Assembly: GCA_041650835.1 (NCBI GenBank)
Contig: JBAZKL010000001.1
Span: forward strand, 701,617 to 765,616
DNA length: 64,000 nt
Direction: 5' to 3'
DNA from: Candidatus Omnitrophota bacterium
Lineage (GTDB): Bacteria; Omnitrophota; Gorgyraeia; Gygaellales; Profunditerraquicolaceae
The translations under genes and the position numbers were made by a program. Below are positions 3,001 to 54,000 of the stretch, piece by piece. Below the pieces are notes generated by a model that saw only the letters and a list, made by a program, of their open reading frames with translations, made no database searches and had not been told where the DNA came from. The first letter of the stretch is position 1, and every line of letters begins with the position of its first letter.

Positions 3001-6000
3001 TAAAGCCAGGTACTGCCCTATCCCTAATCCGTGACGCAAAACGCTCCTTTGCAGCAAAAGACACTGTCCGCCGGACGATAAACAAGCAGCTTGCCCGGCC
3101 ATATCCCGATAAAAACAATAGATTCTCTGCGCTGCTTTCAGCGGATCAAAATACTCAAAGAACTCATAAACACCAAAGGAATCGACCGAATCCAGGAGCG
3201 AAGCTTGCGCCGGGCTCAGATATTGGTTTTTCTTTAAATTAGAAAGCCGGGCAACTCTTTCCGCCGGATCAACAGAAGTATCAAACCAATAATCAACAAC
3301 CTCCCGGGCAACCGGCTCTTCAAAACCTGCCCCCGCGAATGCCTTAATGAGCGCTTCCTTCTTTCTTGCAGGGCCTGACAGGACAAGCTTTTGCCGGGCG
3401 GCAAAATTTTCCCGGTCCCGCTTTATAACATCTACCGCCATGCCTAAACTTATATCGTGGCTATCCGCGACGGAAATAAGCGCCTGACGGCTGAATCCAC
3501 GAGCGATGATCCTGGCAAGGGATGCTTTCTCTATATCAAGCGATTCTAACTGGGATATTTTTTGCTTTATTCTCTCGACATCTTGCTGGCTTAACCTTAA
3601 GCCTTGCACATTAAAATTGCGCGCCGCCTGAACCGTATCGGAAGATAAAATTCCGTTTTCCTGGAGCCGGTCGAGACATAAAATCCAGTACCATTTCATA
3701 TCTTTACCGGAAACGACTTTTGCCAGGGCCTCAATTAACTCAACGCCCAGAGTGACTTTATACCGGGATAATTGCTGCCGGAGGGTTTCGCGCATCCGCT
3801 CACGCAGGAACGCGATCTCCCGTGCCATCATCCGGTTAAAAACCTGCGGATACACCCGCAAAAGCAGTCTTACCCCCGTCAGATCAACCCCCCGCGGATC
3901 GCTCCTTACTTGCCGCACCGTAGGAACATGACAGCCTAATTCTTTAACCCGCCGATTGGCATGGATCAGTTGAAACGGACTCACCAGGGTGCGCGCGGCT
4001 CGATGCGCGATATCTTCATTCAGGCCGCTTTCAATCAACCGGTGGCGCAATATATCCAAAGCGACAGGGTCATAATACGTAAGCCCGCGGCATTCTTGAG
4101 CCGGCGTAACGGCAGTCACTGCTTCTATCGCCGAAGAAGCAGTGCCGCTTTTCATAACTATATGCCGGGAAATAATGCTTTTCTCAGAAACAACTACCCG
4201 GATATTAACGGGCTGTATTAATTTTGTGCCGCCCGGACGAACGAGGGACACGCCTGCGGAGACCTGCGCTATAGGTTTATTATTGAGAAAAACGTATTCC
4301 GGGGAAAATATACTTTTAATTATTTTCAAGAGGCGTATATCGCCGGCGCGGTCCACGCGCAGCTCAAAATAATCTTCGTAAAGCTGCCCTAAATACAAAA
4401 GATACGCCGCGAGGAAAACAAAAACAGTCTCACCGATCCCTCTGCCTCTCATCTCTTGCCCATCATATATCTTTTTGACCGCTATTTCATTTATCAACAA
4501 ATACTTCTCATGCTCTGCGTACGCATTCGCCAGATACCACTTGATATCGCCGATCTTTACAAACGGCTCTTTTAAAAATACCGTTAAACTCGAATCAATA
4601 ACAATTGCCGGGCCGCCTTTCACATTAGCCAGAGCAGTACTTCCTTTTTCTAAAAATGACTCTATTTCTTTAGTCCCGAGCGCTGAAGCGGCGGCTTTTT
4701 GTTTTAAGAATATCTGAGCCCGCTTATAGGGGCCGGCTTCGCCTGGTAAATAAACGATACCGTCATGGCTTATATCATTGCGCTCCCGTTTAAATCCGAC
4801 ACCGATAACCTGTTTTCGAAATTCCCGCTGGTATAATCTGTAATAGAATTCTCCGGCAGGACTATTCTCATCAACATGAAGCGTTATCTGATTAATGCCG
4901 CTCCCTTGCAGGGTGCCGATAAATTCCCGCAACAGGCCGGTTTCCAGGCTCCCCCGGGGATATAACGGCATAGCTGCCATATAATAAAGGTAACCGGGAT
5001 AATCCGCGAATGGCCCTGAAACAAGATACCCGGCAATTTCGTTTTCCAGGATACTCAGATAGATAGTATTGGCAGGATCGGTCGCCACCCGCCAAATAAG
5101 ACCGTTATCTTTCGGGAAAACCGTATAATAAGACGGATTCCTTACTTCCCGGTCAATGCGGGCTATCCCCGCAAGGCTTGCCTCATCAATAGTACCGCCA
5201 TTGATCGCCCTATAAAGAGGCGAACTGCTGGTGCGGGTCGCAACAAAGCAACCTACCGCTTGGTGAGACGAACCTCGAGCCTGCGCCCGGCCGCTGCGCA
5301 TCAATCCGGAATGAGCCACGCATTCGGCATTAAAACGCTCCATCGCGGAATTCAACCAATGTAAACTGCCGCTATCCCTATCGGTAAACTCCTCCGCCAT
5401 GTATTCAAGGCCGCGATTAATATGGCGGTAATAGATATTCTTAACTTCAGACGGGCCGATACCCCTCTCTGAGGCGATCTTTTTTAATTGAAAGGCGTGC
5501 GCCCATTCATGCTTTATTATCCTCACCAGGAGAAACCGTTCCATTACCGCCACAAACAACCACGCGGCTCCGTAGATGATCGCGGCACAATTTGCGGCAT
5601 GGGCCAAGAGAGGCGCATTTACGAAGAAGTAAGAGGCGCAGATACCGCAGGCAAAGAAGAACGCCGCAGCCGGAAGCGTCAACGACCACCCGCCATAACT
5701 AATTGTTATTGAGTTCAGGCGGCCTTCTAAAAAATCAGGGACACAACTGGGGATCCTCACCTGGAGCAATAAAACAAACACACTCAAGATCCGCAGAGAA
5801 AAAGGCATAGACTCCCAACCATCCATAATAAACCGTTTAAACACTTTAAACTGGGACAACGGGGTATATTTTGATTCAAAAACTTCGATATCATTTGGGC
5901 GTATCCCGCGCACATATTTTTTTAGATCGAGGATCATTTGAGCTTCTTGTTTTTTAAGCGGCGAAGAAGCACGAATTTCGCGTTTATTTATCCGTTCGGT

Positions 6001-9000
6001 TAATTTTGACAGTTCCCTTCCGACACTCCCTCCCCGGGGGCGGCTAAAATCGTAAGGCTCACCGAGAGCTGATAAAACAATATTCCAGAGCATCTCATCG
6101 CGTAATCCTCTTACTCCGCCGGATATTTTATAAATAAAGAGCTGTCCTATATCAACAACAGCCCATAATGAAAAACCCCACTGGACAATCCCGCTTAACC
6201 GCAGCCAAAGGGGAAGCGCGGCTCCGGCGATATTTAAGCCGATAAGCAATAATAAAGCGGCACCGAAGAATATGTTAAGAATACGCAGATGAATGAATAT
6301 CCTGACAAAGTTTTCTTTTGCCTGCCAGGACAAATCCCTATAACGGAATATCCTGATAAGCCAGAATAAAGAGGCAGTTGCGCCATAACTGATAATGGCT
6401 ACTGCCGCAGGGAGCAGGGCTGTTTGCCCGGTGAGAGAATACGGCAGCAAAGCTAACCCCGCCAATGCCCAAACAAAAGGGGTCAGAAGCGCGAATACAG
6501 CCCTATTAGATAATATATTCGGCATGCTCCTTTTGAGCATGCTCTTGGAGCCGCCCCTGTTTAACCGAGTTAAAGATACGCCGTATCGGCTCAAAGCCAG
6601 CGGCGAAGAAGATAAAACGCGCCTGCCGATAACCCCCTGCCAGCACTGAAGCTCTTTACCGGGCGCTACGCATTCCGCGCCGAAATATTCTTTTGCCCAA
6701 CGTTCCATCACGGCGTTTCCTTTGGCTATGGAAAACCTGATTTTGTTATTCAGGCGACTGCTTTCAAGGAAAACTACTATTTTCTTGAACGTCTTTGACA
6801 TTAAATATTTTCCTCTCAATCGCGCGGTCACCTCCGGCGTGCGGCCTAAAGAAAGATAGTCAAAATTAACATACCGTTCGAAAACCGCCGCTGAAAAGAC
6901 AAATTCAAAATCATAATTACTTATGCTTCCTTTATTAATTTTATCTAATCGTGATCTTATATAGCGCGCCTTGTCAATTATCACCGCGTATTCAATATTA
7001 TGAGGAAACTCCAGTTTGAGTTCAATAAGGACCAAGGTATCGCCGCAGCCATTCAAATATTCTTCGAGCTTGCCAGCTGACTCGGAAGGTTTTGCGCTTA
7101 ATTTAAATATCCTTAGTTTTTTACCGCCATTAAAACTTTTAAAGGCGGATAACAGGTCGTCTGCCACGAATTCGCTCGATGGCCTTTTTAATAAAGAGGC
7201 AAGTGTAGTAAAGGCTTTTTTGACTGAGCGCGCGGTAAATGCATAGTGCCGGCACGGCATTTCTGTCAGCGGCGAGGCGGCAGTAAAAACACAAGTCATC
7301 TTTGACTCATACGGCTTAAAGCCGTTTTTCTTTTCTAACGGAGAGGACGCTTTTTGCTTCCAGGAGCGATAATCCGCTTTTAATTGCGCGAGGGTTTCCT
7401 CGAAGATATTGATCAGGGCGAGGGTTTCCCCTTTATCCGCCTTCGGCAATGAATTGTATTTTTGTTTAACGCTGACGAGCATTTCTTCAAAGATAGCTAT
7501 CGCGGAGCCATACGCGAACTCTTCGGCAGCACAAACATGCTCTCGGGACTCAAAAGCCCCGGCGATATCATGATCGTATTTCCCCGGATCAGCTTCAAAA
7601 TCATAGACGTGCCCGAAAAGCTCATGCGCCAGCACAGCCGGGAACATATTCTGTTTTTCCTCAAACAAGTCGGTTTGAAAAACAATAAGGTACGTATACG
7701 GTTTGCCGGCCCCAGGGCGCAGCGCGATCGTGATCGAAGGGACGGCTCCCTCGAAATAATACCCGAGAGAAGAAGCCAGCCGCGCCACATTATCAGCCTT
7801 GAAGAAAAGAAGCCTCTCTCCTGAAGCGTACAGAGGCTTCAAAAGCTCTTTACGCTTCTGCGCGGTTTCGCTGAGAGTAAGAAAGCCTAACGTATAGCTT
7901 AAGTACTCATCTTCCATATCGGAAAGGGCCTTAAGCTCTCTCTGGAGCATGCTGCCTCTATCCGGGCTTTTGATAAGATCCTGCGCGAAGAGCTTTCTTA
8001 TATCGCTTAAGAACAGGCTTCCCGCTAAAATCGTTATAAACTGCCTGCGGGTAAACATCGCGGAAGATGCATAGCGGCCGATGGCCCATAGCCTATAATA
8101 GTCCATAGCCTGATCTCTTGAAACCGCTAATAATCCCTTATATTTTCCAACAGGGCTGCTGGACTTTGACCCTCGGGCTTCAAGGCACTCGAAATAGAGC
8201 TGATCGAGGATCAAAGCTTTTCTCTCTCCAAAACGCCCGAGAAAATCCTCATAATCAAAGAATACATATAATTTTACCAGGAATTGATGATCGTCCTTGC
8301 CGATATTCAATAAATAAGAAAGCAGGTAATAAACCTGCTCGAATTCTCCTGTTTTAATAATGCCGCGCAGCAAATCTATTTCCCCCTTATCGGAAACAGG
8401 CTCTATTGCCGTATGCAAAGCGCTCACTATGGAAATCTCTCCTATTCCCAGGTCGATCAAAGTTTCCCGGCTGACCCTATTTCCCAAATAATATCCATAC
8501 GGATACTTGAAATATTCATATAAGGACCCGCTCGGACGGACCGTATCTTTATTCTGGAATTCCACCTGATATATTTCCTGGTGGGGGATCCCCCTATACG
8601 TTATCTTTCCTAAATGCAAACCTATTCTGGTGGCATTCAAGCTAAAGGCATCCTTTAAACTAAGCTTAACGACATAGCTGAGCCTGTAGCGATTCCGTAG
8701 CCCCCCCAGCCGGGACCGCAGCCACTGCTTATATATCGGATCATGCGCCATAGGTAAAGCTATCACGATCTTCTCCTCAAGATTACCTGCCGCGTCAAAC
8801 TGTTCAATGTCCTGGCTGAGCACGATAGCTTTAAACAAATGCCTTATATCTTTACCTATATACCGCACTATCTTCTGCTGTTTAACCTCCCAATATCTTC
8901 CATGCCCATTTGTCAGCTGGTAGCCGAACCGGTAGATCCCCTTATGCTGTTTTAAGAACATAAGCGGCAATATTCCAAACTTCTCTTCTTCTACACCCAA

Positions 9001-12000
9001 AATATTTACCTCTTGAAAAGTAATCGGTGAAGCTGAAGCTAACAGTTTTCTGCTTTCAAGCAGCTTCTCCAGCTCAAGCGAACGCTTTTCATACATCCCC
9101 GTATCTTGATATACTCCCGTCTCAATAATAAAAGCGTTCACGGCAGCGGGAACAAGCCTCCCGACAGATGATCCGTCGCGGACCATCCGACGGATCTTAG
9201 ATGAAGACAGATCAGCGTCTTGTGGATCGGGAATAAATTGCAGAGTAAGGATCTTATCTTTTTCTCTAACTAATCCTTGATATTCAAGCGTATCTTCGAT
9301 CCGGGCCCCCTGCCTGTCCATGACCACAAAATCGTTTTCTTCCAATAATCGCCCGAAATCGCCCGCGAGCGTTGATTGCATTGAATCCTTGCCGACAATA
9401 AAGTAAATTTTGATTTCCCGGGAATACTGCTGCCGGTAATACGCTTTTAAAGCTACAGACATTTCCTGATACCAGCCGGTGTTGACTAAAAACAATTTAT
9501 CGATCCCCGGCTTACCTTCTGCCTTATATTCATCAAAAACTGCCTTTACCGTGAGGATCCTATCCTCAAGCGACATGCCGGAGACCTCTTTTTCAAAGTG
9601 CCTGGTCCCGATTAAGAGTATTGTTTCATCCAAGCTTCCTCCTCCCGGCAAGCGTATATCTTTGGCTACTTCACTCAAGAACTCGTGAGCGTTATGCAGG
9701 CAGTTGGCGGTCGGGACAATAACGCCTATTTTAACCGGAAGGGCTTTTTGCGTTGTTTCCCGGTATTGCGTTACCAGGACAGCCGCAGGCGTCTGCCGTG
9801 AATTTACCTCAATGATCTTCTTCCGAGTGAGCTCATATTCTTCCAGGCAGTTCCGGGGAGACCATCTTCCCACCGACTCTATATCTGCGAAGAACTCCTG
9901 CCAATCCTGATCATCCAACACTTTGGCAGCCATTATCAAATTCTCAAAAAAGCGCCTTTCTCTTTCATCCTGTTCAAGGCGTTCAATGGTATTCCACCGC
10001 ACCAGCCAGGTAAATTGCTGAATGAACTTTAACCGCAGCATCTGCGGGATAGCCCGGATCTCCTGCCTGTTTAAAGGATACCCTAACTTCTCCGCTGCTT
10101 TCTGATACAAGATCACCCAATTCTTTAGTTCATCCATATTAAATTCAGCGCCTGCCTTTTGCAGGTCGTAGAAAAGGCTGCGGATCAAATCGTAAACCCT
10201 TGCTTCCGGCCTGGCAATTTCCCAGTCAAGCACCTTACTGATACGCGCACCCAGCATGGTCACGTTTTCCGCGCGGAAATCACCATGGATCACTGCGCGC
10301 GGCAGGCGGGCATATACCCCGGCCAAATGGCGTATCGCAAGGGCTATCTGCTCTTTGAAGAAAGGCTGATGCTCTATAAAAAGCCGCTCCCCGAAGCTCC
10401 TCCCGGCAGGATCTTTCGCGGTAAGGCGCTCGTACGCTTCGTCTAATTTCAACAGACGGTCATCGATTCCCGCGAATTTGATCACGGGATCGGTGATCCT
10501 TTCCCCGCGTAAATGCACCACGCGCGCATCCATGGTAGAGGCATGCAGCCAGGCAAGAAATCCTGCCAGGTCTTTAAGCATTTCAGCGGTCAATTCTTCA
10601 TACGCGTAAATCCTTCCCAAAGAGTCAAACCGATAGACGGTAAAAATGGCGTCGGCTTCAACATAGGCGGCATTGCCTTCTTCCGTATATATAATCTCAG
10701 GGAATCGGGCGTCTCTTAAATTATTAAAAAGTTCCGGCTCCCACAAAGTGCCTTTTAAGTCCCAAACTGATTTTTTAATAACCACCCTGCCTTTATTACG
10801 CGTATCCAGGATCGCGACTTTATTATTCAATCCCTGGAAATCAAGCGAATCGCTTTCGATTTCCAGCCCATAGGCCGCGGCGATCCGCCTGAGCTCATGC
10901 GCGGTGATCTGTACGGATTTATCGCGATGCACAAAAGATTCACGCTGCTCCCAGAGGCTATCGAGAGCGAAAGAGAGCTGCTCTATCACGTGGGTAGGAA
11001 GAAGCCCTCTTTTTCTTTTTTGTTCTCTTACTACCATATCCGCCGCCAACCCATGGACATACACCCCCAATACCGCCGCTTCACGGGGAGTGAGGCCTTG
11101 AGCGATAAGTCCGGCAATAACGCCGGTAAGGACGTCCCCCATCCCGGCTTTTGCCATATATTTATTTCCGGTAGAATTACTATAGACGCTTCCATTCGGA
11201 CAGGCGATAAGAGTACGTTCGTTCTCATCCCCCTTGAGCACGACCACCGTTCCATACGCGGAAGCAAATTCCCTGGAGATATCCGCGCGGCGGGATTGTA
11301 TTTCTTCAAGAGGGATACCGCTTACGCGTGCCATTTCAACAATATGCGGAGTAATGACCGTCCTGCCCCAGGCATTACGCAGGATTGAAGCCTTACCCGC
11401 CAAAGCATTAAGTGCGCCGGCATCCAGGACTAAAGGAATCCGTGTATTTCTTAATAACCGATACATGACCTCATGCGCCTGATCTTGTTTTACGATAAGC
11501 CCGGGGCCTATTGCTAAAGCGCCTATTTTATTCTGAGAGATCTCCCGCAAGAGCCCTTCTGCCGACAGCAGGTCAAACGAATGATCTTTTTGGTGCGGCA
11601 ACGCGCAGGCCATAACCTCATCCGCCGACTTAGCGTAAAACATGCTGTAGAGATATTTCAAGACACCTGCATATACCATACCAGTGCCGCTCTGCAACGC
11701 TGCTTTTGACGCCAACTGCAGCGCGCCCAAATATTTCCCTATCGAACCTCCGGCAATCAATACTCTCCCTCGGCTGCCTTTATGGTCATTGGATCTTACT
11801 TCCGGCACCAAAAATGCCGCGTCCTGTTCATCAATGGCCTGGATTTTGCGGTTTTTATCTAAGCTTGCCTCAATAAACAATACTATTCTCGGAAAATCGA
11901 CATTTTCCGAAACAATCTCAATATCTTCTGACCATAACTTTAACTGCCTCTCCGGAGTAAAATTATCCACACTCACCGTAAATCCAAGCCCAGAAAGCAC

Positions 12001-15000
12001 AGACACATATTCTTCGACTGAAAAATACTGCCAACTCTCTTCTTTTTCTATATCCCACCGCTGGTCTCCAACATATTGATATTCGCAGACAAAATGCATA
12101 AAATCTTTCTTGGATATCCTGACCATATACTCATCGCCTTCGACCAGATCAAACGGCACGTCTTTAGGCAGGAATTCACGGGCAAAAACATAAAAAGCAT
12201 CTTTAATATTTTTACTTTTAAATTTCATCACAACCTGATCATTTTGTTCGTCTTGCGCAGTATCCGCGCCGTCATAAATATACAAATGCCCTGCTGGCTT
12301 AAGCATCTGAGTAATATTGCCTAATGCAGTGCGCACAAACTTGAGGCCAAGCTCATGATTAATCCTTTCCTCGACACGGCGGGTAGGCCTGCCATAATAT
12401 GAATAGACTTCATGGAGAGTATTGGTAACCATGACCACATCAAAACGCCGCTTTAAATCGCTCGTATCCTGTTCAATGATATCGCGCACGATAAAATGCA
12501 TATCTGCGGCGACGAGTTGCGCTTCATCAACAATGTCAGGGTTGATATCAATACCTAAATATTCAATATACGGGTTATCCGGGAATGCCTCTTTCAGGAC
12601 AGCCAGATCGATCGCCTGTCCGCAGCCGATAGACAATATAGAAACCTTGCCCCCCTGTTTTAAACGCTCCCTGATAAACTCCTTCACCCGCTCCATGACC
12701 TTGCCTTTACCGTCGATCCTCTTACAGGAGGCCATCATGGTTAAAAGATATTCCTTAAATGTCTGCCCGCTTAAGGCGACCCTGCCCTGCGCGTATTCGG
12801 CAAAACCTTGATAAAGGCCATGCTCCCGGATATACCGGCAGATCTCATCCGGCACAAGGCCCTGGATAGGAGCTTTTTCCTTAACGAATACCCTCACTTC
12901 CGCGGAGCTGTGTTTTTGATACTCTTCGTCAATGAGTAACGGCTGTAAGTTACCGGCATACGTATGGCAAAACAAAGATCGCTCTTTAAAATCCGCGAAG
13001 CGCAAATCCTTCTCATCCGCGATGAGAAAATGACGCCCCTCAAAAAGCGCGGGTAAAACTTCCTGATCGCCGCCATAATCCCAGGAAAGGATACGCTCGA
13101 AAGAACGCATGCCCAGGATCACATACAGATCATCATGATGGAGCTGTTTTTTAAGCGCTTCAAGGATATCAACATATAAGCTTTTATAGATCACCTGACA
13201 GGAATACCGGGGGTTCCTTTGGACGAACAACTGAAGCATTTCTTTTCTCTGTCCGAGGGTTGTCCCGTAGGCTTTTGTGTGCAGGGGGTTGGCAGTAAGC
13301 ATAAGGATCATCTTATCCAGGCCGTATTGCATGCGCGCTTCTTCCATCATTACCTTCATCGCGGTGGTAAGGGGATTGAAAGCGCTGATAAAAATACCCG
13401 TTTTAGAGCGGCCGTGCATTGCTTTGATCATGGGGCTGGAGGAAGACGCCTGCGGAGGGGCGCGGGAACGCATAAGCGTTGCCAACGCGGATGAAGACGC
13501 GGGGCGGACGGGTAAATCATGCAAAGTAAGGATACTCACTCCCGGACAGCGCAGCGGCCTGAGGATCAAAGCATCACCCATAAACCCGAAACGGCCTGCT
13601 TCCAAACCCGAAGGCATTGCATTATTTACTTTCCGTAAGTGATCCTGCGCGTTATGAGTTAAATATATATTTCCCGGCTTTTTAAGAAACTCATCATTCC
13701 GGCCCATCATCGCCGGCCGCTCCAATATCTTAGAATTCAGAAGGACCGCGATCTTACTCTTACGAGAGAGATACGACTCATAAACGCAGCTTGGCAAAGG
13801 AGATTTTTCTTTCTGAGCGCCCTGAGAAGGATACTCCCGGCAAACAACCGGCCGTTTTCCATATATTGAACACCTGCCGAGCCAGGACAACCCTTCAGGA
13901 AGATCAAAATCTACCAGGACCTTTAAGAACCAGCAAGGCTTCAGGATAAAGAGCTTCTGCTTATCAGGATCGTAAAATAGCAGCTCCAGGGCATTATCAT
14001 AGAGAGGGCCCCACTGCTTACGCATACCAAATCCCGCGACGCCGATATCATACCAGGCGCTGCTCCCGGGAGAAAGAAAACAACAAAAACCATCCTGGCA
14101 GATATTTTGCTTAATATTAAACGGCTGCGACGCAAGCTCCAGGCTGAAATAATCTCTCTTACTCATACCAAAGACCGAATACTTGTCCTCACCACAGGTG
14201 GATACACAAGCCAAGGGGTTTGACGCGGTATTTTTATTACGCTCATTATAAATACCTTCTAAAACTACAAAAATGATACGGATATCTTCATCCGCTAAAG
14301 AAAACTCATCCTTTATCTCGTCTTGTTTTTGCTTAATAAAATTTGTTAAAACCGACAGGTCATGCGGGGTTTTTTCTATAATAACCTTACCTCCCCGGGT
14401 CAGGTATAATTCAGGGTCCCGGCGTTCCCAAGACATATAAGCAAGATGGGTCAAAGCGTCAGCTCGAGGATCATCCCATTTATAATGAGGATCTTTTATT
14501 TTTGTCGCCCTGTCTTCTGCGGAAAATCCGTGTTTAAAGAACTTGTATTTACGCGGTTCTTCCCGGCAGGTCTGTACCCACATTTGATAGATCCGCTCCA
14601 AATCAAGGTCGGCGCAAAGCAAATCAGCGTCATAGAGTACTTGCGCCTCGATCTTTGCTTGCGCTGTTTTAACCTGTAAAGCGTCCGCAGTCTTAACTTT
14701 TTTGTGCCCCACGATAGCGCTTACAATATCCTCAATCACTGTTTCATCAAAATATCCTGATTCTTCCAATAACAGCCTCGCCCAAAGAGCTGAATAACGA
14801 TGATGGTTCTTCTTATAAAAGAGATATGAGAGATCATGTAACAAAACAGCGAAAACAAGAACAGAGAAATTAAAACCTCCCGGAGCATTATGTTCATGAT
14901 CCCCCGCTTTAACTATTTCAATACTCTGCCGTAAGACCTGCAACACATGAATAAAACCATGTTTAGCCTCTACAGTCAGATCGGCGCAAAAACGCGAAAA

Positions 15001-42000: not shown

Positions 42001-45000
42001 CTTAGCGAGGGGCGAAGTGCAAACAGGAGCAGATGGATCTTTGGCGGGAGGAAAAATAATGATCATGACAGAAGATACAGGGGTAATAGACTTCAGCGCC
42101 GTATCGAATGCTACTTCAACGTAATCGGTGTTTTCATTCTTGACCTTAATGCGTTTGTGATGATCGGCGAAATAAGCTCTCACCAGCTTATAGATCCTGT
42201 CCGCGCATCCGGCATCAGAAATTACCAGTGGCCGTGAGACCTGAAGGCAGGATTCGAAAAACCCAAGTAATACAGATTTCGCGATACCCTTACGCTGCTG
42301 ATTCTCATAAATATCGATATTATCAATAATCAATTCCTTATCAGTAAAATGCGCGTAAAAAGTTCCCGCGGAACGGCCGTCTTTAAAGATACGGTAGCGC
42401 CTTCCATAATCCAGCTTAAATGTCAGGATGAAATTATTATGCTTGATTTCAAGGCCGGGGATATCGATGAACATCCGGGGAGCAGCCGCCAGGCCGCCGT
42501 CTGTAACCGCAGAAGAAGCAGTGTTTCTCACCCAAAAGAGATTTGAAGAATAGCCGTTTATAGCTATAGTATCGCTATCTGTTAAACAATATCCCAAGTC
42601 ACAAGGCAATTTTGTATACAACGCGTGGAGGATATGCGGAGGCGTTCTATAGCCCCGGGACGTCCACTTCTTTACCTGGTATTCTACCGGAGTGATATAA
42701 ATACGCTGCCATCCCTGACAGGCGGCATATTTCTGGAACGCGCGCAGAAGCTGTTTCGGCCAATCAGAGAATTGCTGTTTCATCTCCACAGGAAGCAATT
42801 TATACATATCGCTCTGTATCGAGGAAATTACTTTCCCGGCGGCATTCTTCTCAACCAAAAGGTAGGCAAACGCGCTATAGGTATGCTCCCAAAACATCTT
42901 ATTCTCCCTCATGCCGCGCACTGCTTCTTTCATCCTGCCGCTTTTAGGCAAAAGTATGAACCTGATCTGTCTTTTTTCTCTTCCCGGGACAACCCGCGCC
43001 TCTAATTCTCCCGCGTATATCTCTTCTGAATAATCATGCCTTTCTTGATGCGTGATCCTTAATAGCTCTTCAAGCGGCACATACCTGGCCAGCAAAGAAA
43101 GGAAAACCGGTTGCAAAATACCGCTTTTTCTGACACTGCCTAAAAAGGCGATAATTTCATTGATTGAACGCTGCTTATCTCCTTGATCATGCATATTAAG
43201 ATCTTTAACTGCGGACTCCAAGCCCAAGGCCTTACAATAACTAAGAATAACCGCCAGATCAGCCAAATCTATCCTGGACTGCAACAAAGTATCGATCACG
43301 CCCTCATCAGAGCCGGATCGTAATTGTTCATATATAATCCTCAAATCAACGGGTTTAAAATTATATACCGGATTATGGGCTTTCATAATACGGCAAAAAG
43401 CGCCAGAAGCTTGCGTATCCTCCTGGTTGTTTGATATTATTTCAGCTAAAATGCCGGCGCTCTGCCAGGGAAGACCATGTTTTTCTCTGAACATTATTGC
43501 TTTTCTTAAAAAAACTTTATCCACAGAGGCGTCCCTCAGCAATGCTTCCGCGAAATACCCTTTTTCCGTATTATGTAAAAGCTGGTATCTATCCCGCAAC
43601 CCGCAATGGTCATTACCCGTAAAATAATCACCTGCCATAACACAATCAGCTAAATAAATACCCGGGATGCCCTCTCTAAGCAGGGGCTCAACCAACTCTT
43701 TTCTTCCTCCCGCCGCGGCAACAGCTTTTGCAAGAGAAGTAATATCAAAAACACCCAATATACCTTTCTTCTTTTGATCGTTGAGATAATCAACCGTAGA
43801 GAGCACGAGAGGATCGTCGTGCTTAAGAAGCAAATAAGCTTCCACAAACGAATGGATATAGCTCTTAGGAAAGCCACTCGCCTGAAAAGAAGGCAATGCG
43901 CATTGCAGGGCGCTTATTCCAAAAGCTTCCGCCGCGACTTTAAGGCTGGTTAATTCTTCATTCGAATCAGGCCTGATCTCTCCGATCAAATCGATCAGCG
44001 CGAAGGTACGCTCATCCAATCCGATCTGCGATATCACCCTGTCCAAACGCGCCTCCTGATACAACGGCCTATTCCGGTAGTTCTTAAGCTCTCTTAACGC
44101 GGTTTTTACGTCGTTCAAAGAAAGCTTCCCTGCCCCTGATTGCGTTTGGCCGCTCATGATCGGGGATGAACCCAAGTTCCGGGCAAATACGGCATGATAG
44201 GGAGTAGGATACCCCTGCCAATCATAGATCATTTTTTCATTAATGCCCTGTTCAAAACCGGCATTAACGAAGTAACTCTTTACTAATGCAATTCTTTCTC
44301 TCTTGTTCGATGCGGCTTGCCAGGGGAGGCTTCTTTCTTGAAGGGCAGACCGATGGTCAAAGACTACGGCAAGACAAGCACCGGGCATAAGCACTCGCTT
44401 GGCTTCCATAAAAAGCTCACGGGCAAGCTTAACGTAAGCGATCCCATTGACCATGAGAATACCCGCTATGCTTCTCTCGGGGAAATGTAATGACGGATCA
44501 GTATTTAAATCCTGAAGAATATAGCCGCCATTTAAACTTTTATTAGCTTTCAGTTCTAATTCATTTAATCCTATCCCGGTAATCTTACCGTTAAGCGTTC
44601 TGGGGAAATAAGTATTGGCTCCGCTCATGAGATCAAGATACACCGGTTCAATAACGCCCGTCCCGCGGGGAAGGATATTAAACAATGCCGCCCTTATCGC
44701 TTCTGACTGATCGGTATTCATATACCCTAAATGATTAGGCGTTTCCCAGGAAGAGATCATCTTTTGCTCATCCCCTGAAACGCTATCACCTGTTCCCTTA
44801 TCCCCATTAATATCTCTGTCTTTGCTGCTAAGAGAAACATCAAAAAGCCTGGTCGCCTGCGGAGATGATGATCGTCCTTTCCCTTTCTTATAATACCCTT
44901 CAAATTTCTCTACAGCAGGGCCTATTCTCCTGAAATAAAGCTCCCAGTCACCGGTATCAACATCCAGAATAAACCTCTCCAAAGATCCCCGATATACAAA

Positions 45001-48000
45001 GCCGTATTTACTAAAGACCTTGCTCAAAACCGGGAGCGCCTTTAAAGCGCACGGGACAACCTCGAAGGCGTTCCTTCCGGAAATAAGCTCGCCCATAAGG
45101 ACATTGATCATAAGATAAATATAATCATTGCCCCGCCAGATTTGATCTAAGTAAACTCTTAACACACGCAATTTAGCTTCCGAGAACAGGTCCTCGAAAT
45201 ACAGGAATCCGGACTGGCTCTTATCAGAAGCGTTGAATAATATAAGCTTATAATAAGTGGAATACGCTCCGGCATTACGCAAGCGTTCGATAACCACATC
45301 GATTTCCGCCTTTTGCGGCAGTATCCTGATAGTACCAAGCTGCCCCTCTACCAAGTCTCCGGCATCAGCAAGGCGTATTTTCCATTCATAATCAGGACCC
45401 AGAAGATCATCGGACAATGCCGATCCAGCCTTATTATCTTTAGCGATCGTGTCGGCAAAATCCCGCAACTTTTGATGCTGCTTTTGCGTAATCTTCTTTT
45501 GTATCTTACTGAGGTCTTCCATGATAAGCCTGACGGGATCCTCGGCAAGCTCAGGGAATACCGCGATAATACGCAACAACAGTTCTTCCCTTTGACGGAT
45601 TGCCGCCGCGCTCAAATCGAGGAAAAGCATATCGCGCCAAATATCATAGGCGCGCAGCCATTCCCCCTCACTTACCGCTGCTTCGAATAATGCAAACCAA
45701 GCCTGCTCAAAGTCTCTAACGGCAAAACCGAGAGCACCCAGGTCTTCATACATTTCAACGGTGAGTCCCTGACAGGCAGCAAGCCTGTCTTCTCCCTCAG
45801 AAGCAAGCAATCCCCGAAAAAGCCTCAACCATGTGTGCAGTTTGCGTATCTTATCCTCCGGAGAAGAAAGTGACGGGAAATATTCAAAGCCTTTTTTACG
45901 CGCCTCATCCCACCTGCCTTCTTCAATAAGCGACTGCCAGTTGCTGAATGCTTCCTCCACCCGCGACTGCGCCAACGAACTGCCGGCAGAAGTAGACGTC
46001 CGCGCGCAGACCAGCGCCCCCAAACCATCTCCCCTTGCATGTAAAGATCTATAAAGCCCTTTTTGACCTGACTTACTGGCGGCAATCGCGGAAGAACTCC
46101 CCAAAGAAACCGCGGCAAAAATATCCGCCTCCACTTGAGCTCTTTCCGCAAAATCGATATTTGCATCTTCATATAAGGTTTCCCCGCTGATCTCATGTAT
46201 ATCCAAGGCGCTAAAACCATACCCCGCTTTCAAAGCATCATTCAAGAACGCGATAATACAAGCCACCTTTTGTTCAAAAAAGACCTCCTGTTCCCCAAGG
46301 GACTTTTGCCGGTCACGGAATTGCTTTATTATTCTGGCTGTTCTGTACTTATAAATAGTTTCCTGTATAATTCCTTCCGGTCCGGGGGCGATCAATGCTT
46401 TTTGCAAAATGATCTTTAATTTCGCTAAGGAATACTCCTGGCTTAAAGACTCAACCAACACTATAATTCCTTCATTATCTAAAATTAGCCCTTCCTCTAT
46501 TAATTTAATCGCCGCATGCAAAGCCAGGGACACTTGATTGTCTTCCCGGGTCTTAGGGTCGATTTCCGGAATGAAAATATGCCCGTAGAGCCGCGGCCAA
46601 AAGCTTACAAAAGGCCTTAATGCGGAAAATTTCTCCGGGAGATCGTTATAAAAGCCCAATACCGTATTGTCCCTTTCGCACCGCCGCGCGTAGGCATTAC
46701 GGCTCAACCAGAATTTGTATTTATTTTGTATCAATTCCAAAGCCTCTCCCATTCTAAGAATATCATACCAGTTTGGTCTCCCGTTTTTAAATGTTCCCGG
46801 TTCTCGAGAAGCTGCTGGAGCCGCACGGATTCTTTCCTTCAGCACCACAGGATTTATATAAGGGACGTAGGCTGCCTGTCTATCCTGTCGCCATATTTGA
46901 AGATCGCCTTCCGGCTCATATCTAATAATGCTATACTCTATTGTTATCTGTTGTTTTTCAATGGCCTCGACCGTCAGATCAAACAGCTGCTCCCTTGAAG
47001 GATCATTCAGCGTGTTTGCTAAAATAAACACACTGCTGATAAATTCTTTCTTACTGATATCCAAGATCACTTCATCCCGGCAAGGAGCCGGCCATGTGGA
47101 AGCATCTTGAGATCCGACTCCGGTATCACGACAAGTCGCCGTAGCCGTATATTCTCCGTACGTAATCTTTGCTTCCCAAATTGTCTCCGCTAACGCCTTG
47201 ACCTGCGAATATTCAACCGGCGAAGATGCGCTGTCAGGGATCAACCGGTAAATTTTTCTATTATCCTTGCCTTTTTCAACAACTATATTTTTATTTTCTC
47301 CGGCTAACTGCTTTAAATCCAAACGCCGCTGGCTTGCATTTACCCAGGGGATCTGAGGGTTCTCCCGCAAAAGCCTCGTATAAAGAAACACAGTAATAAA
47401 CCCGTGTTCTTTTAAATAGGATCTTACTAAAGCAATCCTCTGTTCGGGATAACTTCCCGGACGATAGATCGCTGAAGACGCGCCGGCTAAAGTTCCTTCC
47501 CGTAAAGAATCTTCCAGCGGCGTTTCTTCTCCCCGGGTGTTCACGAACGAAAAACCGTCAGCCGCGTAGAATATTGTCCCTTTTCTCCAGCCTTGATGGT
47601 CCAAAAGCCTCCATATATCAAATAGGACCGACATTATGGAGCGCGCGTGGATAACGGGGACCGCCGGTTCACCCAATAAGCCACCTTGAGGATTACAAGA
47701 AATAATAAGGAGATTGCTTAGTTTTTGCTCCCGCGATAGATCATGGATCAAGCCTTTTAATGACCCGTTTTTGATCGTATGGTTGCCTTCTGCGGTAAAA
47801 CCGTGAATATAATATGCCGGCCCCCGGTATCTGAATAATTTCTTTTGTTTCTTGTCGCACAAGAATATATCCGCTTGAGGATTAAACGGCATCATATATT
47901 TATCGTGTAGCTTCGCCGTCAAACCAGGCAATTTCTTCCAAAAGAAGACGCCCGCCCCGATGGCAAGAAAAGCGGTTAACAAAACCTGGTAATCCTCAAA

Positions 48001-51000
48001 ATATCCTGTAACGGTATAGAAAAACGCTATAAGCACCGCCGCCATATATAGAGACGTGCTTATGCTCCCTCTTTCATGCTTCACAACTGTCAGGAAAGAA
48101 TACGGTATTTCCTCTATTTTCCATGGCCGCAGTGAAGACCCGCTCTGATTACTGTTTACCTGAGGAGTTATCGAGTAAAAGCCATCGTTAGGGGATTCGG
48201 GAACAATCTCCTCTTTATAGAGCGCCACGAAGACTTCCCTCAGCTTTCTCTGGACCGCGATCCTGGAGCGTTCGTCAAAGAATTTACCATCCGCTATGGC
48301 GGCATCCCGGTCCCAAAGGCGCTCCATAAAGATCAAGCTGCCCAACAGGTCTTTGCCGCTTACGCCTTCAGCCACAAAGATCTCATATACCCTGCCGGAT
48401 TGAGAGAAGCCCTGGCGGACCTTGATGAATTGTTTCTCTAAGCGCTCGTCATTCAATCTCAAACCCGCAAAGACATAAAAGCTGTATTGCACACGGATAC
48501 CGAAAGGATTAACGACCGTATAATCAGCGGCATTAACGGCGTTTTCCGCTATTTTTAAACTCTTTTCAACCAAATCCAAGCCCGCGGATCTCCGGCTTTT
48601 TCCGGTACATTCTTCATAGTTATGCACCGCCGCGTAATTCTGGCTGCCGACGTGGCCGTCATCATTCGCCTGCAGGCAAACAACGGCAGCCGCCCCGTCA
48701 ATGCTTGCCAACAACCTGTTATTTTTATACCCTAAGCTTGCTCCTTGAGCGAGAAGATCTACCGGAAGAACAAAATCCGCGTCAAAGGCGATCTCTATGC
48801 TTTTCGAGCTTTTAATTTTCTTCGAAAGCCCTGAAGCCGCGGAAGAAAAAGGGTTATTGCCTTTACCGCAGGCCGCCCGGCTAAACGCAATAGCTGCGGC
48901 GACAGGATCCGCGGACTGGGTGATGGCCGCGTTCACTAAAACGCCATTGCATCCCATTTTCAATATTTGGCGGACATGCCGCGGCTCTCCGATCCCGCAT
49001 TCACCGATCAATTGAATACCCGGACGTATTTTTCTGGCTAAGGCGATAACCGCCTTCACTTTATCTGTTTCTTCAGGGAGCCCCAAACCTCTATGGGAAC
49101 CAGGCCGCGTTAATTCAACGCGTAACGCGATAACCTGGCTGATGTCCAACAATTCCGCCAGCATCTCCGCGAGAATTTCTTTGCCTATAAGGGGAATTAT
49201 CCTGATATTCCTGTTAAGCGCGACCAGCGCCTTGACGGCGTTAAACATTTCCGCGTTATTCGTCATTACATCTCTATTTCTTACCTCCAGCTTTACGTAA
49301 GGGGTTTTTGAGAAATACACCCCGACTCCCGCCAGCATTATTGCGTCTTCCTGCGTCATGGCTTTACTGGTATTGACCACCGCGAGAAATTTCCTTGTCT
49401 GCCGCCGGGCCGAAAGCTTCTGGTGAATCAAATCAACAAAAGGAATACGCAATGCTTTCGGGAGTGCCGTTAAACTTCCTTTTTCACCCAGGGTAACCAA
49501 ACCGCTATTTTCATCAAAGACGATTTCCCGCAACATTCTACGGGCATTGTCCAAAGTAGTGCATTCCTTCAAGAATTCTATGCCCCCCGGCAGAAAGATC
49601 AGGAACTGTGTCCTTGACCTTACGGTCAATTCGCTTGCGACTTCAGGCGAAAGAGAGATAATACACGATTCATCGAAAGAATGCGTAATCGCCGTGGGGG
49701 CGATCAAGGGGAATAATTCCTGGCCGGAAATCACTATTTTCCTTTTTTCTACTAGCGGTGAAGCCGCGCGCGCGGACAAAACTCCTTCAGATATCGTTAA
49801 GCGGAAAATCCTTGGCTGACCGTACATCAAAGGAACAAACCAGATAGGATGCGAATAAACATGGGCCCTATCCATCTTTGACTCGACCATTGCGCCTCCG
49901 AGATATATCCCGCAGTGAGCGACAAATCCCGACGCATGAATATAAGCTACTAAATCATTCTTTTTCGCATCGCGCAAATTGATCTCAGGGAAGATCGCGC
50001 GTAGTTTTTCATATGAGAATAAAGCGTGCAGATCAACCCCTAATTTCCTCGTCGCATAAGCGATACAATCCTCTAATCCATTTTTTGTTCTTTCAACTAT
50101 TTGGTACCCCGGCAAACGCCCGATATCATCATATAAACCAAGGCTAAATAAACGGGAAATTTCTTTACTTACTCGCTTTCTGAATTTATCGCTGCCATGG
50201 AAACAAACACCCGGTTTTAGTAACGGGAACCCGGCAGCTTGCAAAGCTGAAGACGTATTGTCTGCTAATCCAGGCGTGCGCCTTTGCCCTGAGGCCAGCG
50301 GCGAAGCCGCGCGGGGCGCTGCCGCTTTCGCCCGAACCCTTATCTCTGCCTGAGCGGAACCCTCACCTTGACGGCCATTTTCTTTGTCCAGGAACAATAA
50401 AACAGGGTCAACGTATCCGGCTTTCTCCATTACCCTTAAAACAGGGGCTTGTTTTACGTATTTAATGTCATTCGCGTTAATACCGTATTGCCGATTTAAT
50501 ATCCTTATTGCCCTTACCAGGCTGGTAATAAAGCTGTCCCTGATCCTTAACTGGCTGCCGTTACAGCGTATGCTTGGGCCTAGAATAAAGTCCATCGTGC
50601 CAGGGTTAAAAGCATCCCCGGCGGGATCATAGAGGGCGCTGTATTTCAGACAATGCTTGAGTATCTCCTGATGATCACTTATTCCATTATGCAAAACAAC
50701 CATTTTGTGCAGCGCTTCAAGCGTGGCGCGGTTGACAACAGATTCCCCCTCAATATATCCTCCCCCATACGTAAATATAATATCGTTCAACCTGCGCGTC
50801 ACAAAAGAATCGATACCCTTGCCCATCAAAAATCCGCAAGAAGCGTTGATCTCCGTTGTTTTTCCATACGTGCATAGGGGTGTTAATTGGATGGTTTTGG
50901 TATAGACATACGGCGAGGGCATACCCGGCTTGTTATATTCCGACAGTTTCCCATACTTAAGATCATATTCATACCCCCAGATATGGGCCCAATATGCGCG

Positions 51001-54000
51001 GCGTTTTCCGAACGACTGGATATGGCAGGTAAAAGCCATATCAAAGATCCCATCTTCTAAATTAATTCTGTAAATTATATCCTCATTGCCATTTTTACCA
51101 AAATGACTGTTTAAATAACTGTTCAGGGTTTCGTAACTCAACCAGGGATCACGGGAATTACCCGCAGCGTTAATCTTATTCGGCGAAGATGATTGTAAAC
51201 TATTATTTATAACATAATCGAAAGTTACGTCATTCTCTTCATATCTAAACCGCATAAACTCATCAGGGCTTATATTTTTTATACGCTTGTTTCGAGTTGT
51301 ATTCCGACGCCATTCTAGATAAAAAAGCCTTGAATCATTATCCGCAACGACTCTAATTATTACAACATTGTCGTGGAGGCCCCTATAGAGAGAGCAATCT
51401 AACCCGGCAAGGATCACGAAATCGATGCTCCCGGCCTTAAGAGCCTTATTAATGTTTGATTCCAGCTTCATGGCATCTATGCCGACCCCATACCTGCAAT
51501 ACCTGTCTCTTTCTATGCGGCGGATGGAATGCAGCCGGTAAAGATCATAAATCAGTTTTGCGACATAGCTCTTACCAACTCCGGAGTCGCCTTCTATAAT
51601 CAACAACAGTTTTCCTCTTTGTAATGCGGCATCAATAACTTTCTTAACCGCTTCCAGCGCCTTAGCTTGATGCGGTAATTTCTTAAAAGGGGGCAATCTA
51701 TGAATAATCGGCGATGATCCATGATTAACCCCTATCCTGCCTCTCCAGAGCATCGAGTTATCGACTTGACCGGCGCGAAAATATTTCTTGAGCCAGTGAA
51801 ATATCGCCTCGCTGCTGCTGCAGATGGTCCTTGCCTCAAACACCCATCCCGGGTATTCCTTTTCCAGGAAAGAAGCGGCATTCTTAAAGGTAAGCGACAT
51901 TAACCCTTTGCCCCTGAGGCTATCGATCACAAGATCAGACCGGCCGAGTGAAATATCATGCAGGTATATGAGCTTTTTACCGGAAAACGCGCTTACCTCC
52001 AGGACAAATTCATAGTCTTCTATATCAATTTCGCAGCGTAATATTTTGTTGAGCCCGAATTTTATGCGCCACATTCTGTCAATAACAGCGGCGTAATAAA
52101 CCCCGTTTTCCGAGCGTCGTATAAACAGGACAGCTGCAAATTCTTTTAAGCGTCCGGCAAGCATAAGATCTAAGAACCATCTCCAACTGAATATTTGCTT
52201 TGCCTGCTTACGCACGTCTTTATCTGTGCCCTGAAAAACGAAAGTAAGTACCGGCTTATCATCTATCTCCCGGAACGCGCTTAATAGATCCTTCGCCAGG
52301 AAAACTTGCGCGCGCACCAACTCATTTTCCCCCTCTCCCCTCTCGCTCTTGGAGAGCGCCAGCGGCGAGGCGGCTGGTAAAGATGAAGATACTCTCACGC
52401 TTCCCCGGGAAAACCCCGTCACGGCGGCAGCGCGCACAAAATCGGCGAACGATCCTTCCGCATGGGCCGGTATTTTTATTTCCTGTTTAAGGAAGAAATC
52501 GTGGTACGCTCCCGCCAGCGTGCGGATATGATGATTTGCCTCATCCAAGGCAAGCGCGCGCGCGAAATACCGCAAGAACTCCTCCTCCTGCATACGCATA
52601 AGATACAGCTCAGCCAGGGCGATGTGCCATACGGGATTGAATGGCTGATACTGCAAGGTATCCTCGATAAACCACTCTTTCATCTCCCCTATTTCCACAT
52701 TCGCCGATTCCATCGAACCTATGACGGAAAGAAGCAGGTGCCTTTGCGCAATATTCGCGGGGTCATCTCTTAAATCCTGCAAGACGATTTGACTGAACTG
52801 CCGTAATTCCAAAGCGTCCATCTCTGAAATTTTCCCTTGCTGTTTAAGGATATGCTCCCACTGCATCCCGGCAGAAAGACGATGTTCCTTGAGGTATCCC
52901 CGGTAGTCGATAAAACTATAGAATCCAAGTTGATACATCTCTTCGCGTATTGCGACCACCGACTGCAAAGCGTCCCGCCCACCCGTAACCACAAGATCAT
53001 CAATGAGCGCGATACAACAACCCATCTCCGAGCCACACGCGTGCCCATACCTTTGCCTCAATGAGTCGATGACACGGTAAAGATACGTTGAGATCAGCTC
53101 ATCAGCCAGTATTTCAAGGACATCTTCTCTATAGATGCCTTTTTGCCGGATATCCATATCATTCAACCGATGCACAAACTTTTCCACTTCAGTATCCGCT
53201 ATCGGCAAAAGTTGACGCACTCCGTCGTAGGCAAGCATAGACCCATAACGCTGATCGACGCGCGCCCGATCAGCGACTCTATATCCGAATTCGTTTATTT
53301 CTTTTGTTGATATATCCTTCAAGAAAAGGCCGCGATCATTGGCAAAGGCATAATTGGTATAGCGGCTGCCGGGAGAAATGAACACTCCCGGTGTACGGTT
53401 CGACGAATAATTAAAAGGCAGAAGGTAAAAAAGGAGCAGCGATTCCACGAACTTAGGCATAAGCGAATCGGGAGTGGATAAAATAATATTATAGGATGGA
53501 TAGAGCCCTTCATTCATCAAGACGCGGTGCTTCTTCAAGATACCGTCTATATCCTTGTAGCCTTTATCCATAAGGAACGGTTGGCTATTCTCGTCAAGGC
53601 CAAAGCCTATGTGATAGAACCCGTTTTTCACCACTCTCCCTGTAAAATCCTTTAAGGCCGCGGGATCATCGGGCAGAGTATTTAAATGTGTCTGTTCAAT
53701 GGCGAAACTAAAGTACCTGCCGAGATCGTACTGTTCGATGAATGAGATGACCGCTTCGGCGTGCGCCCGGGAAAGAAGAAAATTTTCGTCCCAGAATCTT
53801 ACGGTGATCCTGCGCGCTTTAAGTGCCTCCAGTTGAGGCGATTCTCTCCTTGACCGCAAAGATTCGGCCAATGATGCTAACGAAATCAGAGGGGGGCCCA
53901 CAGGAAGATGATTACGAAGCATACCAAGAATGCGTTCTTGTAAATGGCTTACTTCGCAAAGCGTGACGCTCCTGCTCCCCCCAAACATCAGGGACGCGTT

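Follow-up and report, generated by a model that had tools for sequence, protein, structure and literature searches.

A short conserved peptide at the seams between gene-sized cassettes in a giant reading frame of Omnitrophota

A short peptide of the type [AS][AS]-S-[PA]-[LVIM] recurs along a giant open reading frame (ORF) that fills 64,000 nucleotides of a Candidatus Omnitrophota genome (contig JBAZKL010000001.1, positions 701,617 to 765,616; this whole stretch is hereafter called the window). With high confidence, the peptide is a marker of the seams between gene-sized cassettes. Minus-strand frame 1 (1..64000) features no stops over all the 64,000 bases, and runs for 21,333 codons as a single ORF of at least 21,333 amino acids (aa), open at both window ends; 746–1,667 stops are found in each of the other frames. 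The window is best explained as an inner portion of a "multi-enzyme" giant gene of Omnitrophota, in which gene-sized cassettes are joined in frame. An alternative genetic code, or read-through, was ruled out, as TAA, TAG and TGA are all absent from the frame.

The frame exceeds the 10,000 aa from which proteins are counted as giant. The nearest loci, L006 (a Candidatus Omnitrophota metagenome-assembled genome, or MAG) and L005 (a binned MAG), are 77–85% identical to it at the amino acid level, and all remaining relatives belong to Omnitrophota or Omnitrophica. With natural MAG loci this similar at hand, the possibility of a synthetic or model-generated sequence was discarded. The amino acid composition of the window protein is ordinary. 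Pfam and NCBIfam models cover only ~13% of it, and ~20 distinct families, none dominant, tile the ORF as in multi-enzyme giants. PrmA-like and other methyltransferases were found along with B12-binding, ThiG, CheR, Rce1/CPBP intramembrane protease, PIG-L, GT2 and HD domains, two histidine-kinase ATPase (HATPase_c) regions, an APH-type kinase and a second NadD. As in polyproteins, several complete functional units reside in one ORF, among them a full-length NadD (profile 1–194/194), NnrD, the CoaB half of CoaBC (241 bits) and the CPBP protease. Giants of Omnitrophota have been described as "Archaeovorins" (West-Roberts et al. 2023, bioRxiv 10.1101/2023.11.21.568195), and the window gene is of the kind sorted into the "multi-enzyme metabolic cluster" class (Nielsen & Lui 2026, bioRxiv 10.64898/2026.06.07.730766). 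It shares with Omnitrophota giants the very long ORF, nearest relatives in the same phylum, scattered transmembrane (TM) segments, poor conservation between relatives and the tiling by many unrelated enzyme Pfams (methyltransferases, HATPase_c, HD, GT). The seam motif, the shuffling of cassettes and their stand-alone orthologues are additions made here: neither paper reports a motif, linker, junction, polyprotein or cleavage site in this sense, and nothing relevant was found in the literature on Omnitroph* combined with polyprotein or cleavage site.

The tetrapeptide SSSP, which a previous reading of the letters alone (the sequence-only reading) had judged too frequent for chance, occurs 9 times versus 0.27 expected (maximum 3 in 300 shuffles) and is the most over-represented 4-mer of the window protein (Poisson P ~1e-11). 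The pattern [AS]S{1,3}P[LVI], which that reading had proposed to count against shuffled controls, was found 31 times versus 2.1 expected, and each peptide it had listed was identified at, or within ~30 nt of, the place assigned to it. The peptide is thus non-random, but its original definition was too narrow. The top pentapeptide of the window protein is AASPL, and SSSAL, SSAL and ASSA are likewise enriched; S-S-[SA]-A-[LVIM] forms therefore belong to the set too, and the fuller definition [AS][AS]-S-[PA]-[LVIM] yields 32 sites versus 1.09 expected (maximum 6 in 200 shuffles). Sites had been placed between 5150 and 52400; they occur there, but span window positions 1123 to 62718. The third position is strictly Ser, no excess being observed when A, T or G are allowed, the fourth is Pro or Ala, and Val and Ile make up 47% of the fifth. 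The 15 residues upstream are richer in basic residues (0.183 versus 0.129, P=0.0002), and the flanks are short and mildly hydrophilic or disorder-prone (0.58 versus 0.53). With its upstream part the seam consensus reads ([KR]-x)-[AS]-[AS]-S-[PA]-[LVIM], where residue 1 of the unit that follows falls roughly at position 5. SSS is over-represented as such (28 versus 6.7 expected), as it should be if the motif were a chance or low-complexity product of a Ser-rich composition. This explanation, whose probability is practically nil, is refuted by the 30-fold, position-specific enrichment, the recurrence of the motif in independent assemblies, and its coincidence with the ends of homology blocks.

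The latter were defined by comparison with relatives of the window. L006, the closest one, is 77–80% identical to the window where aligned, and is collinear with it only in the following blocks:

L006 aa 167–2654, corresponding to window aa 12709–15214
L006 aa 3334–5346, corresponding to window aa 16845–18888
L006 aa 5353–5618, corresponding to window aa 1259–1524, a cassette at a different place
L006 aa 7088–7539, corresponding to window aa 18899–19351
L006 aa 8158–8222, corresponding to window aa 19582–19646

Sequences between the blocks are unrelated. Most of the nine L006 block ends coincide with the motif itself, and the rest fall within ~10 residues of it or beside a degenerate copy. When block ends from L006, L008, L011, L015, L016, L018 and L019 are pooled (33 in all, repeats included, corresponding to ~13 distinct junctions), 24/33 are located 15 aa or less from a window motif site, versus 5.3% of random positions (P ~6e-24), and the median distance to the motif is 9 aa, versus 207 aa for random positions. 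A 26-aa mini-unit (aa 18618–18643, SSSPV to ASSAM) is absent in L006, where the joint reads K-SSS/AM, the slash separating motif codon 3 from codon 4. The motif is the exact point at which cassettes are gained, lost and translocated.

Self-comparison of the window protein identified old internal duplications, each bracketed by the motif. One set includes aa 8820–9941, 9962–11151 and 20540–21004, a second aa 3900–4090 and 18944–19125, a third aa 16866–17076 and 18090–18310. The first corresponds to a ~1,190-aa cassette present in three diverged copies (28–41% identity, the third partial) at window 34162–37713, 30520–34146 and ~1138–2380 (aa 8763–9946, 9952–11160 and 20540–20954), with a relative in L016; it has no match in Pfam/NCBIfam. 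A 221-aa Rce1/CPBP unit resides exactly between ASSAL at aa 14245 and SSSAL at aa 14466, and all its hydrophobic segments are inside these limits. Position 1 of the NadD profile (aa 16869) is 12 residues past SSSPM, and in an AlphaFold model of the seam and the NadD/MT region (7-sequence alignment, mean pLDDT 73) the first NadD strand starts 8 residues past the motif; since the alignment had no coverage upstream of the seam, low confidence in that part is uninformative. None of the 32 strict sites lies within a Pfam/NCBIfam match, though this alone corresponds to P ~0.01, because of the low domain coverage. The placement at boundaries was thus correctly read, but the boundaries are those of gene-sized cassettes (~180–1,750 aa), not of individual domains. 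Junction sites in the window are listed below, by coordinates, strand and type.

62704..62718, minus strand, SASPF, degenerate (aa 428), starts a cassette 60% identical to one in L016, where the copy starts at SASPL
60934..60948, minus strand, SASPV (aa 1018), motif match
60205..60219, minus strand, AASPV (aa 1261), start of a cassette placed elsewhere in L006
59413..59427, minus strand, SSSAL (aa 1525), in tandem with TSSPL at aa 1513 (59449–59463), end of an L006 homology block
56248..56262, minus strand, SASPL (aa 2580), motif match
52360..52374, minus strand, AASPL (aa 3876), start of a cassette paralogous to aa 18907–19130 and 68% identical to an L016 cassette
51706..51720, minus strand, GSSPI, degenerate (aa 4094), end of the cassette starting at aa 3876
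51178..51192, minus strand, SSSPN (aa 4270), listed by the sequence-only reading; candidate junction
50296..50310, minus strand, AASPL (aa 4564), motif match
49753..49767, minus strand, AASPL (aa 4745), upstream of a ThiG-like cassette
47467..47481, minus strand, ASSAI (aa 5507), end of a cassette common to the window and L018
47215..47229, minus strand, ASSPV (aa 5591), motif match
46084..46098, minus strand, SSSAI (aa 5968), motif match
44857..44871, minus strand, SSSPQ (aa 6377), also listed previously; candidate junction
42505..42519, minus strand, ASSAV (aa 7161), motif match
39889..39903, minus strand, SASPV (aa 8033), motif match
39235..39249, minus strand, ASSAL (aa 8251), motif match
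38437..38451, minus strand, SASAI (aa 8517), motif match
37714..37728, minus strand, SSSAV (aa 8758), start of copy A of the ~1,190-aa paralogous cassette
34147..34161, minus strand, SSSPV (aa 9947), exactly between paralogous copies A and B
30505..30519, minus strand, SGSPL, degenerate (aa 11161), end of paralogous copy B
27187..27201, minus strand, ASSPV (aa 12267), after the histidine-kinase cassette
25867..25881, minus strand, GSSPL, degenerate (aa 12707), L006 homology starts exactly here
22987..23001, minus strand, SSSSL, degenerate (aa 13667), between the CheR and CoaB cassettes; SSSPL in the L006 orthologue
21253..21267, minus strand, ASSAL (aa 14245), start of the Rce1/CPBP membrane cassette
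20590..20604, minus strand, SSSAL (aa 14466), end of the 221-aa Rce1/CPBP cassette
15328..15342, minus strand, SSSAI (aa 16220), in tandem with SSSPF at aa 16185 (15433–15447)
13483..13497, minus strand, SSSAL (aa 16835), first of a tandem pair, 18 aa apart
13429..13443, minus strand, SSSPM (aa 16853), directly before the NadD-MT-NnrD-APH-NadD cassette
9037..13428, minus strand, NadD-MT-NnrD-APH-NadD cassette (aa 16858–18321), orthologous to stand-alone Omnitrophota proteins of 1,350–1,599 aa
9022..9036, minus strand, SASPI (aa 18322), end of the NadD-MT-NnrD-APH-NadD cassette
8149..8163, minus strand, SSSPV (aa 18613), start of the 26-aa mini-unit without counterpart in L006
8056..8070, minus strand, ASSAM (aa 18644), followed by a Tat-signal-like segment (window 7990–8058)
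7336..7350, minus strand, ASSPL (aa 18884), L006 homology stops exactly here
7267..7281, minus strand, AASPL (aa 18907), the next L006 homology block begins
6598..6612, minus strand, SSSPL (aa 19130), start of a 3-TM cassette common to the window and L018
5956..5970, minus strand, ASSPL (aa 19344), an L006 homology block stops exactly here
5215..5229, minus strand, SSSPL (aa 19591), an L006 homology block resumes ~10 aa upstream
4678..4692, minus strand, AASAL (aa 19770), motif match
4126..4140, minus strand, ASSAI (aa 19954), upstream of paralogous copy C
1123..1137, minus strand, SSSPA, degenerate (aa 20955), directly after paralogous copy C

Tandem pairs of seams, 11–37 aa apart and enclosing short "mini-units", are common (aa 1019/1033, 1513/1525, 12696/12708, 15196/15233, 16185/16220, 16835/16853, 18613/18644 and 18884/18907). 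The mini-units may be either remnants of deleted cassettes or spacer peptides.

One cassette exists also as an ordinary gene. The region aa 16853–18322 matches proteins of 1,445–1,599 aa encoded by Candidatus Omnitrophica MAGs (44–49% identity, 96–99% coverage), in which the counterpart has its own start and stop; in L001 it is found within a row of five large genes on the same strand. Homology begins at about residue 72 of the stand-alone proteins, past an N-terminal leader, and ends 20–40 residues before their C-terminus. The motif is found on both sides of the cassette in the window, L006, L016 (aa 3334 and 4797) and L011 (aa 113 and 1575), and at its N-terminal boundary in L008, L015/L019 and L018. 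No internal motif was found in the five-domain NadD cassette in any of the giant versions compared, and no motif sites in the stand-alone proteins. Since it flanks the cassette and is absent inside, the motif marks seams at the level of genes, not of domains. In a neighbor-joining tree of the cassette, drawn without support values, stand-alone and embedded forms are interleaved, a branching pattern that suggests more than one fusion or fission event. Comparison of the L001 neighbour genes with the window by phmmer and blast revealed no further shared cassettes.

Large stand-alone proteins (L001:1656-18447, L009, L010, L013) feature an N-terminal basic and hydrophobic leader, as MKMRRTRQTNTFFRITALALIWA, and a "[CT]-L-[SA]-P-x-h-x-I" stretch at about residue 35–60. 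Their C-terminus conforms to "[IV]-[EG]-[QR]-[AS]-I" (IEQAI, VGQAI, IERSI, IARAI). No Pfam/NCBIfam models correspond to the leader or tail. Leader and tail could be an undescribed pair of sorting or docking signals, which would replace the seam motif when cassettes are separate genes.

Scanning of genome and metagenome collections with the NadD-MT-NnrD-APH-NadD cassette identified 15 loci. Few long proteins were found when the MT region was searched against a representative library, because most giants are not in that library. One open frame spans the full ~24 kb of each of the L006, L008, L016, L018 and L019 loci. The shorter L015 (12.5 kb) and L011 (5.9 kb) are likewise open from end to end, and L014/L017 contain a 4,412-aa ORF. 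In L005 the giant frame, otherwise open, switches within ~100 nt (L005:8522-8636), owing to either a frameshift or an assembly error. The motif is enriched 30–50-fold in those ~24-kb giants whose seams are of the SSP type, with 14 sites versus 0.33 expected in L006, 10 versus 0.28 in L008, 14 versus 0.28 in L016, 8 versus 0.25 in L018, and 11 versus 0.27 in L019, and is enriched also in the shorter L005 and L015 loci. Partial Omnitrophota proteins carry it as well: P0141 has 5–6 sites versus ~0.1 expected, bracketing a complete GlgB, and P0006 11 sites versus 0.27 expected.

The top 4-mers in giants are ASPL, SSSP, SSPL or SPLG, and the consensus varies with the lineage, being SASPLA in L018, [GS]SSPLG in L019/L015 and VSSPA in L011. 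In L014/L017 the seam is VSDT, found 6 times (P ~5e-12) between aa 392 and 2995 of the 4,412-aa ORF. VSDT is mostly encoded by GTG TCA GAC ACC, which in L014 forms the perfect palindrome GTGTCAGACAC; one site has other codons (GTA AGC GAC ACA), and the palindrome was observed at seams in the L014/L017 lineage only.

The level at which the motif is conserved was derived from 13 orthologous seams of the window and L006. Motif residues are identical in 57/65 cases (88%), versus 208/360 (58%) in the ±15-aa flanks and 77% overall. At identical residues, codons are the same in 36/56 motif positions (64%), versus 1524/2363 (64.5%) elsewhere. Amino acids are kept and synonymous sites are not, hence the peptide is constrained, not the nucleotides; additional support comes from the use of both Ser codon families, TCN and AGY, at motif sites and from the recoded VSDT site. 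In terms of sequence divergence, this shows purifying selection on the peptide, not the DNA.

Codon usage at the window sites is mildly skewed. TCG encodes the position-3 Ser at 10/32 sites (12% background), GCG the position-4 Ala at 12/14 (37% background), and GCY the position-2 Ala at 11/11. TCG, CCG and GCG are over-used at the seams, where the same-codon fraction is 0.274 versus 0.221 expected (P=0.0025); the bias is real but modest. The excess of CG-ending codons is not accounted for by nucleotide conservation between orthologues. The near-identical 12-mers reported by the sequence-only reading largely did not hold up: the pattern CGGMGARGAWGA has only 3 matches (1126, 6601, 51181), and codons vary. 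Two translational signals were ruled out. Position 5 is not a fossil GTG/TTG/CTG/ATT start codon, as Val is encoded by GTT/GTA, never by GTG, and Leu mostly by CTT/CTG; internal initiation at a Shine-Dalgarno sequence does not apply either, as the 18 nt upstream of the seams contain no conserved purine-rich element.

A DNA-level assembly seam, be it a recombination site or a microhomology, with a peptide that is merely tolerated, would account for breakpoints of insertions, deletions and translocations inside the motif, as for the codon bias and the L014 palindrome. Seam DNA is moreover strikingly uniform in L019 (AGC AGC CCG CTG GGG at ~10 sites, same-codon fraction 0.52 versus 0.22 expected), and codon choice strongly homogeneous in L018. 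This uniformity may mean that seams descended from one another, or that they have a secondary role as recombination microhomology. As the main function of the motif, a DNA seam is quite unlikely. Motif synonymous sites change as fast as others while amino acids are kept, the invariant Ser comes from both codon families, one VSDT site has entirely different codons, L006 shows no codon homogeneity, and no recombinase is visible in the window, all of which is the ORF. In integron-like systems a conserved DNA site with inverted repeats is located at the boundaries; here synonymous sites are not extra conserved, and codons vary.

Segments resembling N-terminal signals directly follow some of the junctions. 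The Tat-signal-like MFTRRQFITILAGSLFLS (aa 18648–18670) is found directly after the seam ASSA/M inside the giant ORF, and is kept in L006 as MLTRRQFITVLAGSVLF; TRRQFI plus a hydrophobic stretch follows the junction in both. A Sec-like peptide ending in VFA/D follows a junction in L019, and a segment resembling the leader of stand-alone proteins follows one in L008. These signals argue for a release of the cassettes. A short consensus kept this strictly, and better than the sequence on either side, behaves as a recognition motif would, rather than a spacer, and a distinct strict consensus in each lineage is expected if site and protease co-evolve.

A proteolytic role of the seam motif, at which cassette proteins would be released, has on these comparisons about an even chance of being correct. 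The sequence [AS]-S-[PA]-[LVIM] is like the classical subtilisin/elastase substrates Ala-Ala-Pro-Phe/Leu/Val, in that small residues are followed by Pro/Ala and then by an aliphatic residue. A dedicated protease would recognise the motif and release the cassette proteins from the giant translation product. As a substrate, the small-small-Ser-Pro/Ala-aliphatic pattern would fit a serine protease, with Pro/Ala at P2 and the aliphatic residue at P1. As a by-product, the short shared sequence would provide in-frame joints for cassette recombination. The candidate enzymes would be the S8 or C39 peptidase domains reported at N-termini of Omnitrophota giants, which have been proposed to cut them (10.1101/2023.11.21.568195).

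Alternatively, the motif could be an uncleaved structural seam, a conserved turn or insulator which lets cassettes fold independently in an intact, membrane-tethered giant. The shortness and only mild hydrophilicity of the flanks, the position of the motif just outside the fold in the AlphaFold model, and the scarcity of proteases in the window are in line with such a role, and topology surveys read giants as single membrane-anchored polypeptides (10.64898/2026.06.07.730766). Passive linkers, however, normally lack a strict 5-residue consensus that stands out from the flanks, and do not normally switch to a different strict consensus such as VSDT in another lineage; domain boundaries within cassettes lack the motif, and Tat-like and Sec-like signals follow some junctions. 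The structural seam is accordingly rated unlikely. Of the roles first proposed from the letters, that of a passive flexible hinge is the hardest to reconcile with a 5-residue consensus so strict, specific to each lineage and kept better than the sequence around it: in place of a PT- or GS-rich stretch, a fixed 5-mer is found, absent at within-cassette boundaries. The polyprotein proposed in the same place fits the anatomy, which is that of a single ORF holding many enzyme units, with one short consensus per seam.

Proline-directed Ser phosphorylation or O-glycosylation, regulating or protecting the linkers, was also considered. The invariant Ser followed by Pro/Ala, the Ser or Thr present in all lineage variants, the basic residues enriched upstream and the occurrence of kinase-like (APH) and glycosyltransferase domains in the window protein would suit a modification site. 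It is nonetheless very unlikely: no kinase or glycosyltransferase is tied to the motif, Ala replaces Pro at half of the sites, and modification alone leaves unexplained why each gene-sized boundary has exactly one site.

Several points weigh against the proteolytic release of cassettes. Cleavage is at this stage deduced from sequence. The only protease domain detected by Pfam/NCBIfam in the window is in the Rce1/CPBP-like cassette, the N-terminus of the gene being outside the window. Val and Ile, which account for nearly half of the fifth positions, are poor P1 residues for classical subtilisins, and Pro at P1', were the cut to fall after Ser, would block many proteases. Internal signal-like segments can act as start-transfer sequences without cleavage. 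A component acting at the level of nucleotides is hinted at by the NCG codon bias and by the strongly homogeneous seam DNA of L019 and L014. Stand-alone orthologues have been demonstrated for one cassette only. Homology searches with aa 18880–19600 (three small cassettes) and with aa 12708–14470 (CheR, CoaB, Rce1) gave no match, the latter despite strong Pfam matches there, a saturated word-index candidate list being the probable cause.

A wider proposal, which is tentative and on balance doubtful, is that giants of this type are "polyprotein operons", in which dozens of independent genes would be expressed as one product, cut at a lineage-specific seam by a co-evolving protease, with the seams serving as joints for gene swapping. 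In viral polyproteins a short consensus is found at every unit boundary, and in the dinoflagellate light-harvesting complex (LHC) polyproteins units end in SPLR and are cut after Arg (PMC3480386). The window shares with both several complete units per ORF, a short conserved peptide at the unit boundaries and a consensus that varies with the lineage. Some window-type sites read SSPLR, a resemblance to the dinoflagellate SPLR that is probably coincidental. In contrast to known polyproteins, the ORF here is bacterial and joins dozens of enzymes and membrane proteins that are unrelated to one another, and both its protease and its cleavage are putative.

In modular polyketide synthases (PKS) and nonribosomal peptide synthetases (NRPS), modules are fused, or split into proteins with N- and C-terminal docking elements. 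Here too the same unit is either fused in a megaprotein or encoded by a separate gene, and separate forms have extra conserved ends (L[SA]P leader, EQAI tail), whose docking role is conjectural. Unlike PKS/NRPS modules, the cassettes are unrelated to one another and do not work on a single tethered intermediate, and no carrier domains are present. C39 peptidases cleave double-glycine leaders, in which Gly-Gly, or GA/GS, occupies the –2/–1 positions at the end of an N-terminal leader. The seam motif differs in being internal, repeated and devoid of Gly-Gly, Gly being not enriched at motif positions in the window.

Omnitrophota giants measure up to ~147,000 aa, and whether they are single molecules or cut pieces is an explicitly open question. 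Missing cleavage points prevented the splitting of giants for structure prediction (West-Roberts et al., 10.1101/2023.11.21.568195). The seams are the first specific points that can be put forward as possible cut sites in giant proteins, and provide a simple sequence rule for segmenting them into natural units, as well as precise residues to look for in N-terminomics or existing metaproteomes. Motif variants can be tracked across lineages, which gives a handle for finding the responsible enzyme. Giant genes evolve by the shuffling of whole cassettes at defined joints, and interconvert with ordinary genes. If true, the "polyprotein operon" would be a cellular analogue of the genome organisation of viral polyproteins, interconvertible with stand-alone genes carrying leader and tail signals; its units would include cytosolic enzymes, membrane proteins and exported proteins, and whole genes would be swapped, duplicated and lost at the seams.

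Additional features were noted in the course of the analysis. At aa 13670–14060 (window 21800–23000) a degenerate second copy, which has lost the SSGK-type motif, comes after the CoaB (phosphopantothenate-cysteine ligase) domain, and there is no CoaC half. Only one further ORF in the window reaches 150 aa (10897–11388, plus strand, 163 aa); it lies antisense within the NnrD/APH region of the giant gene and is likely to be spurious. In L001 the stand-alone cluster is followed (L001:20483-21680) by a PA2779-family gene, and then by a gene for a PA2778-family C39 cysteine peptidase with a lipoprotein-like signal.

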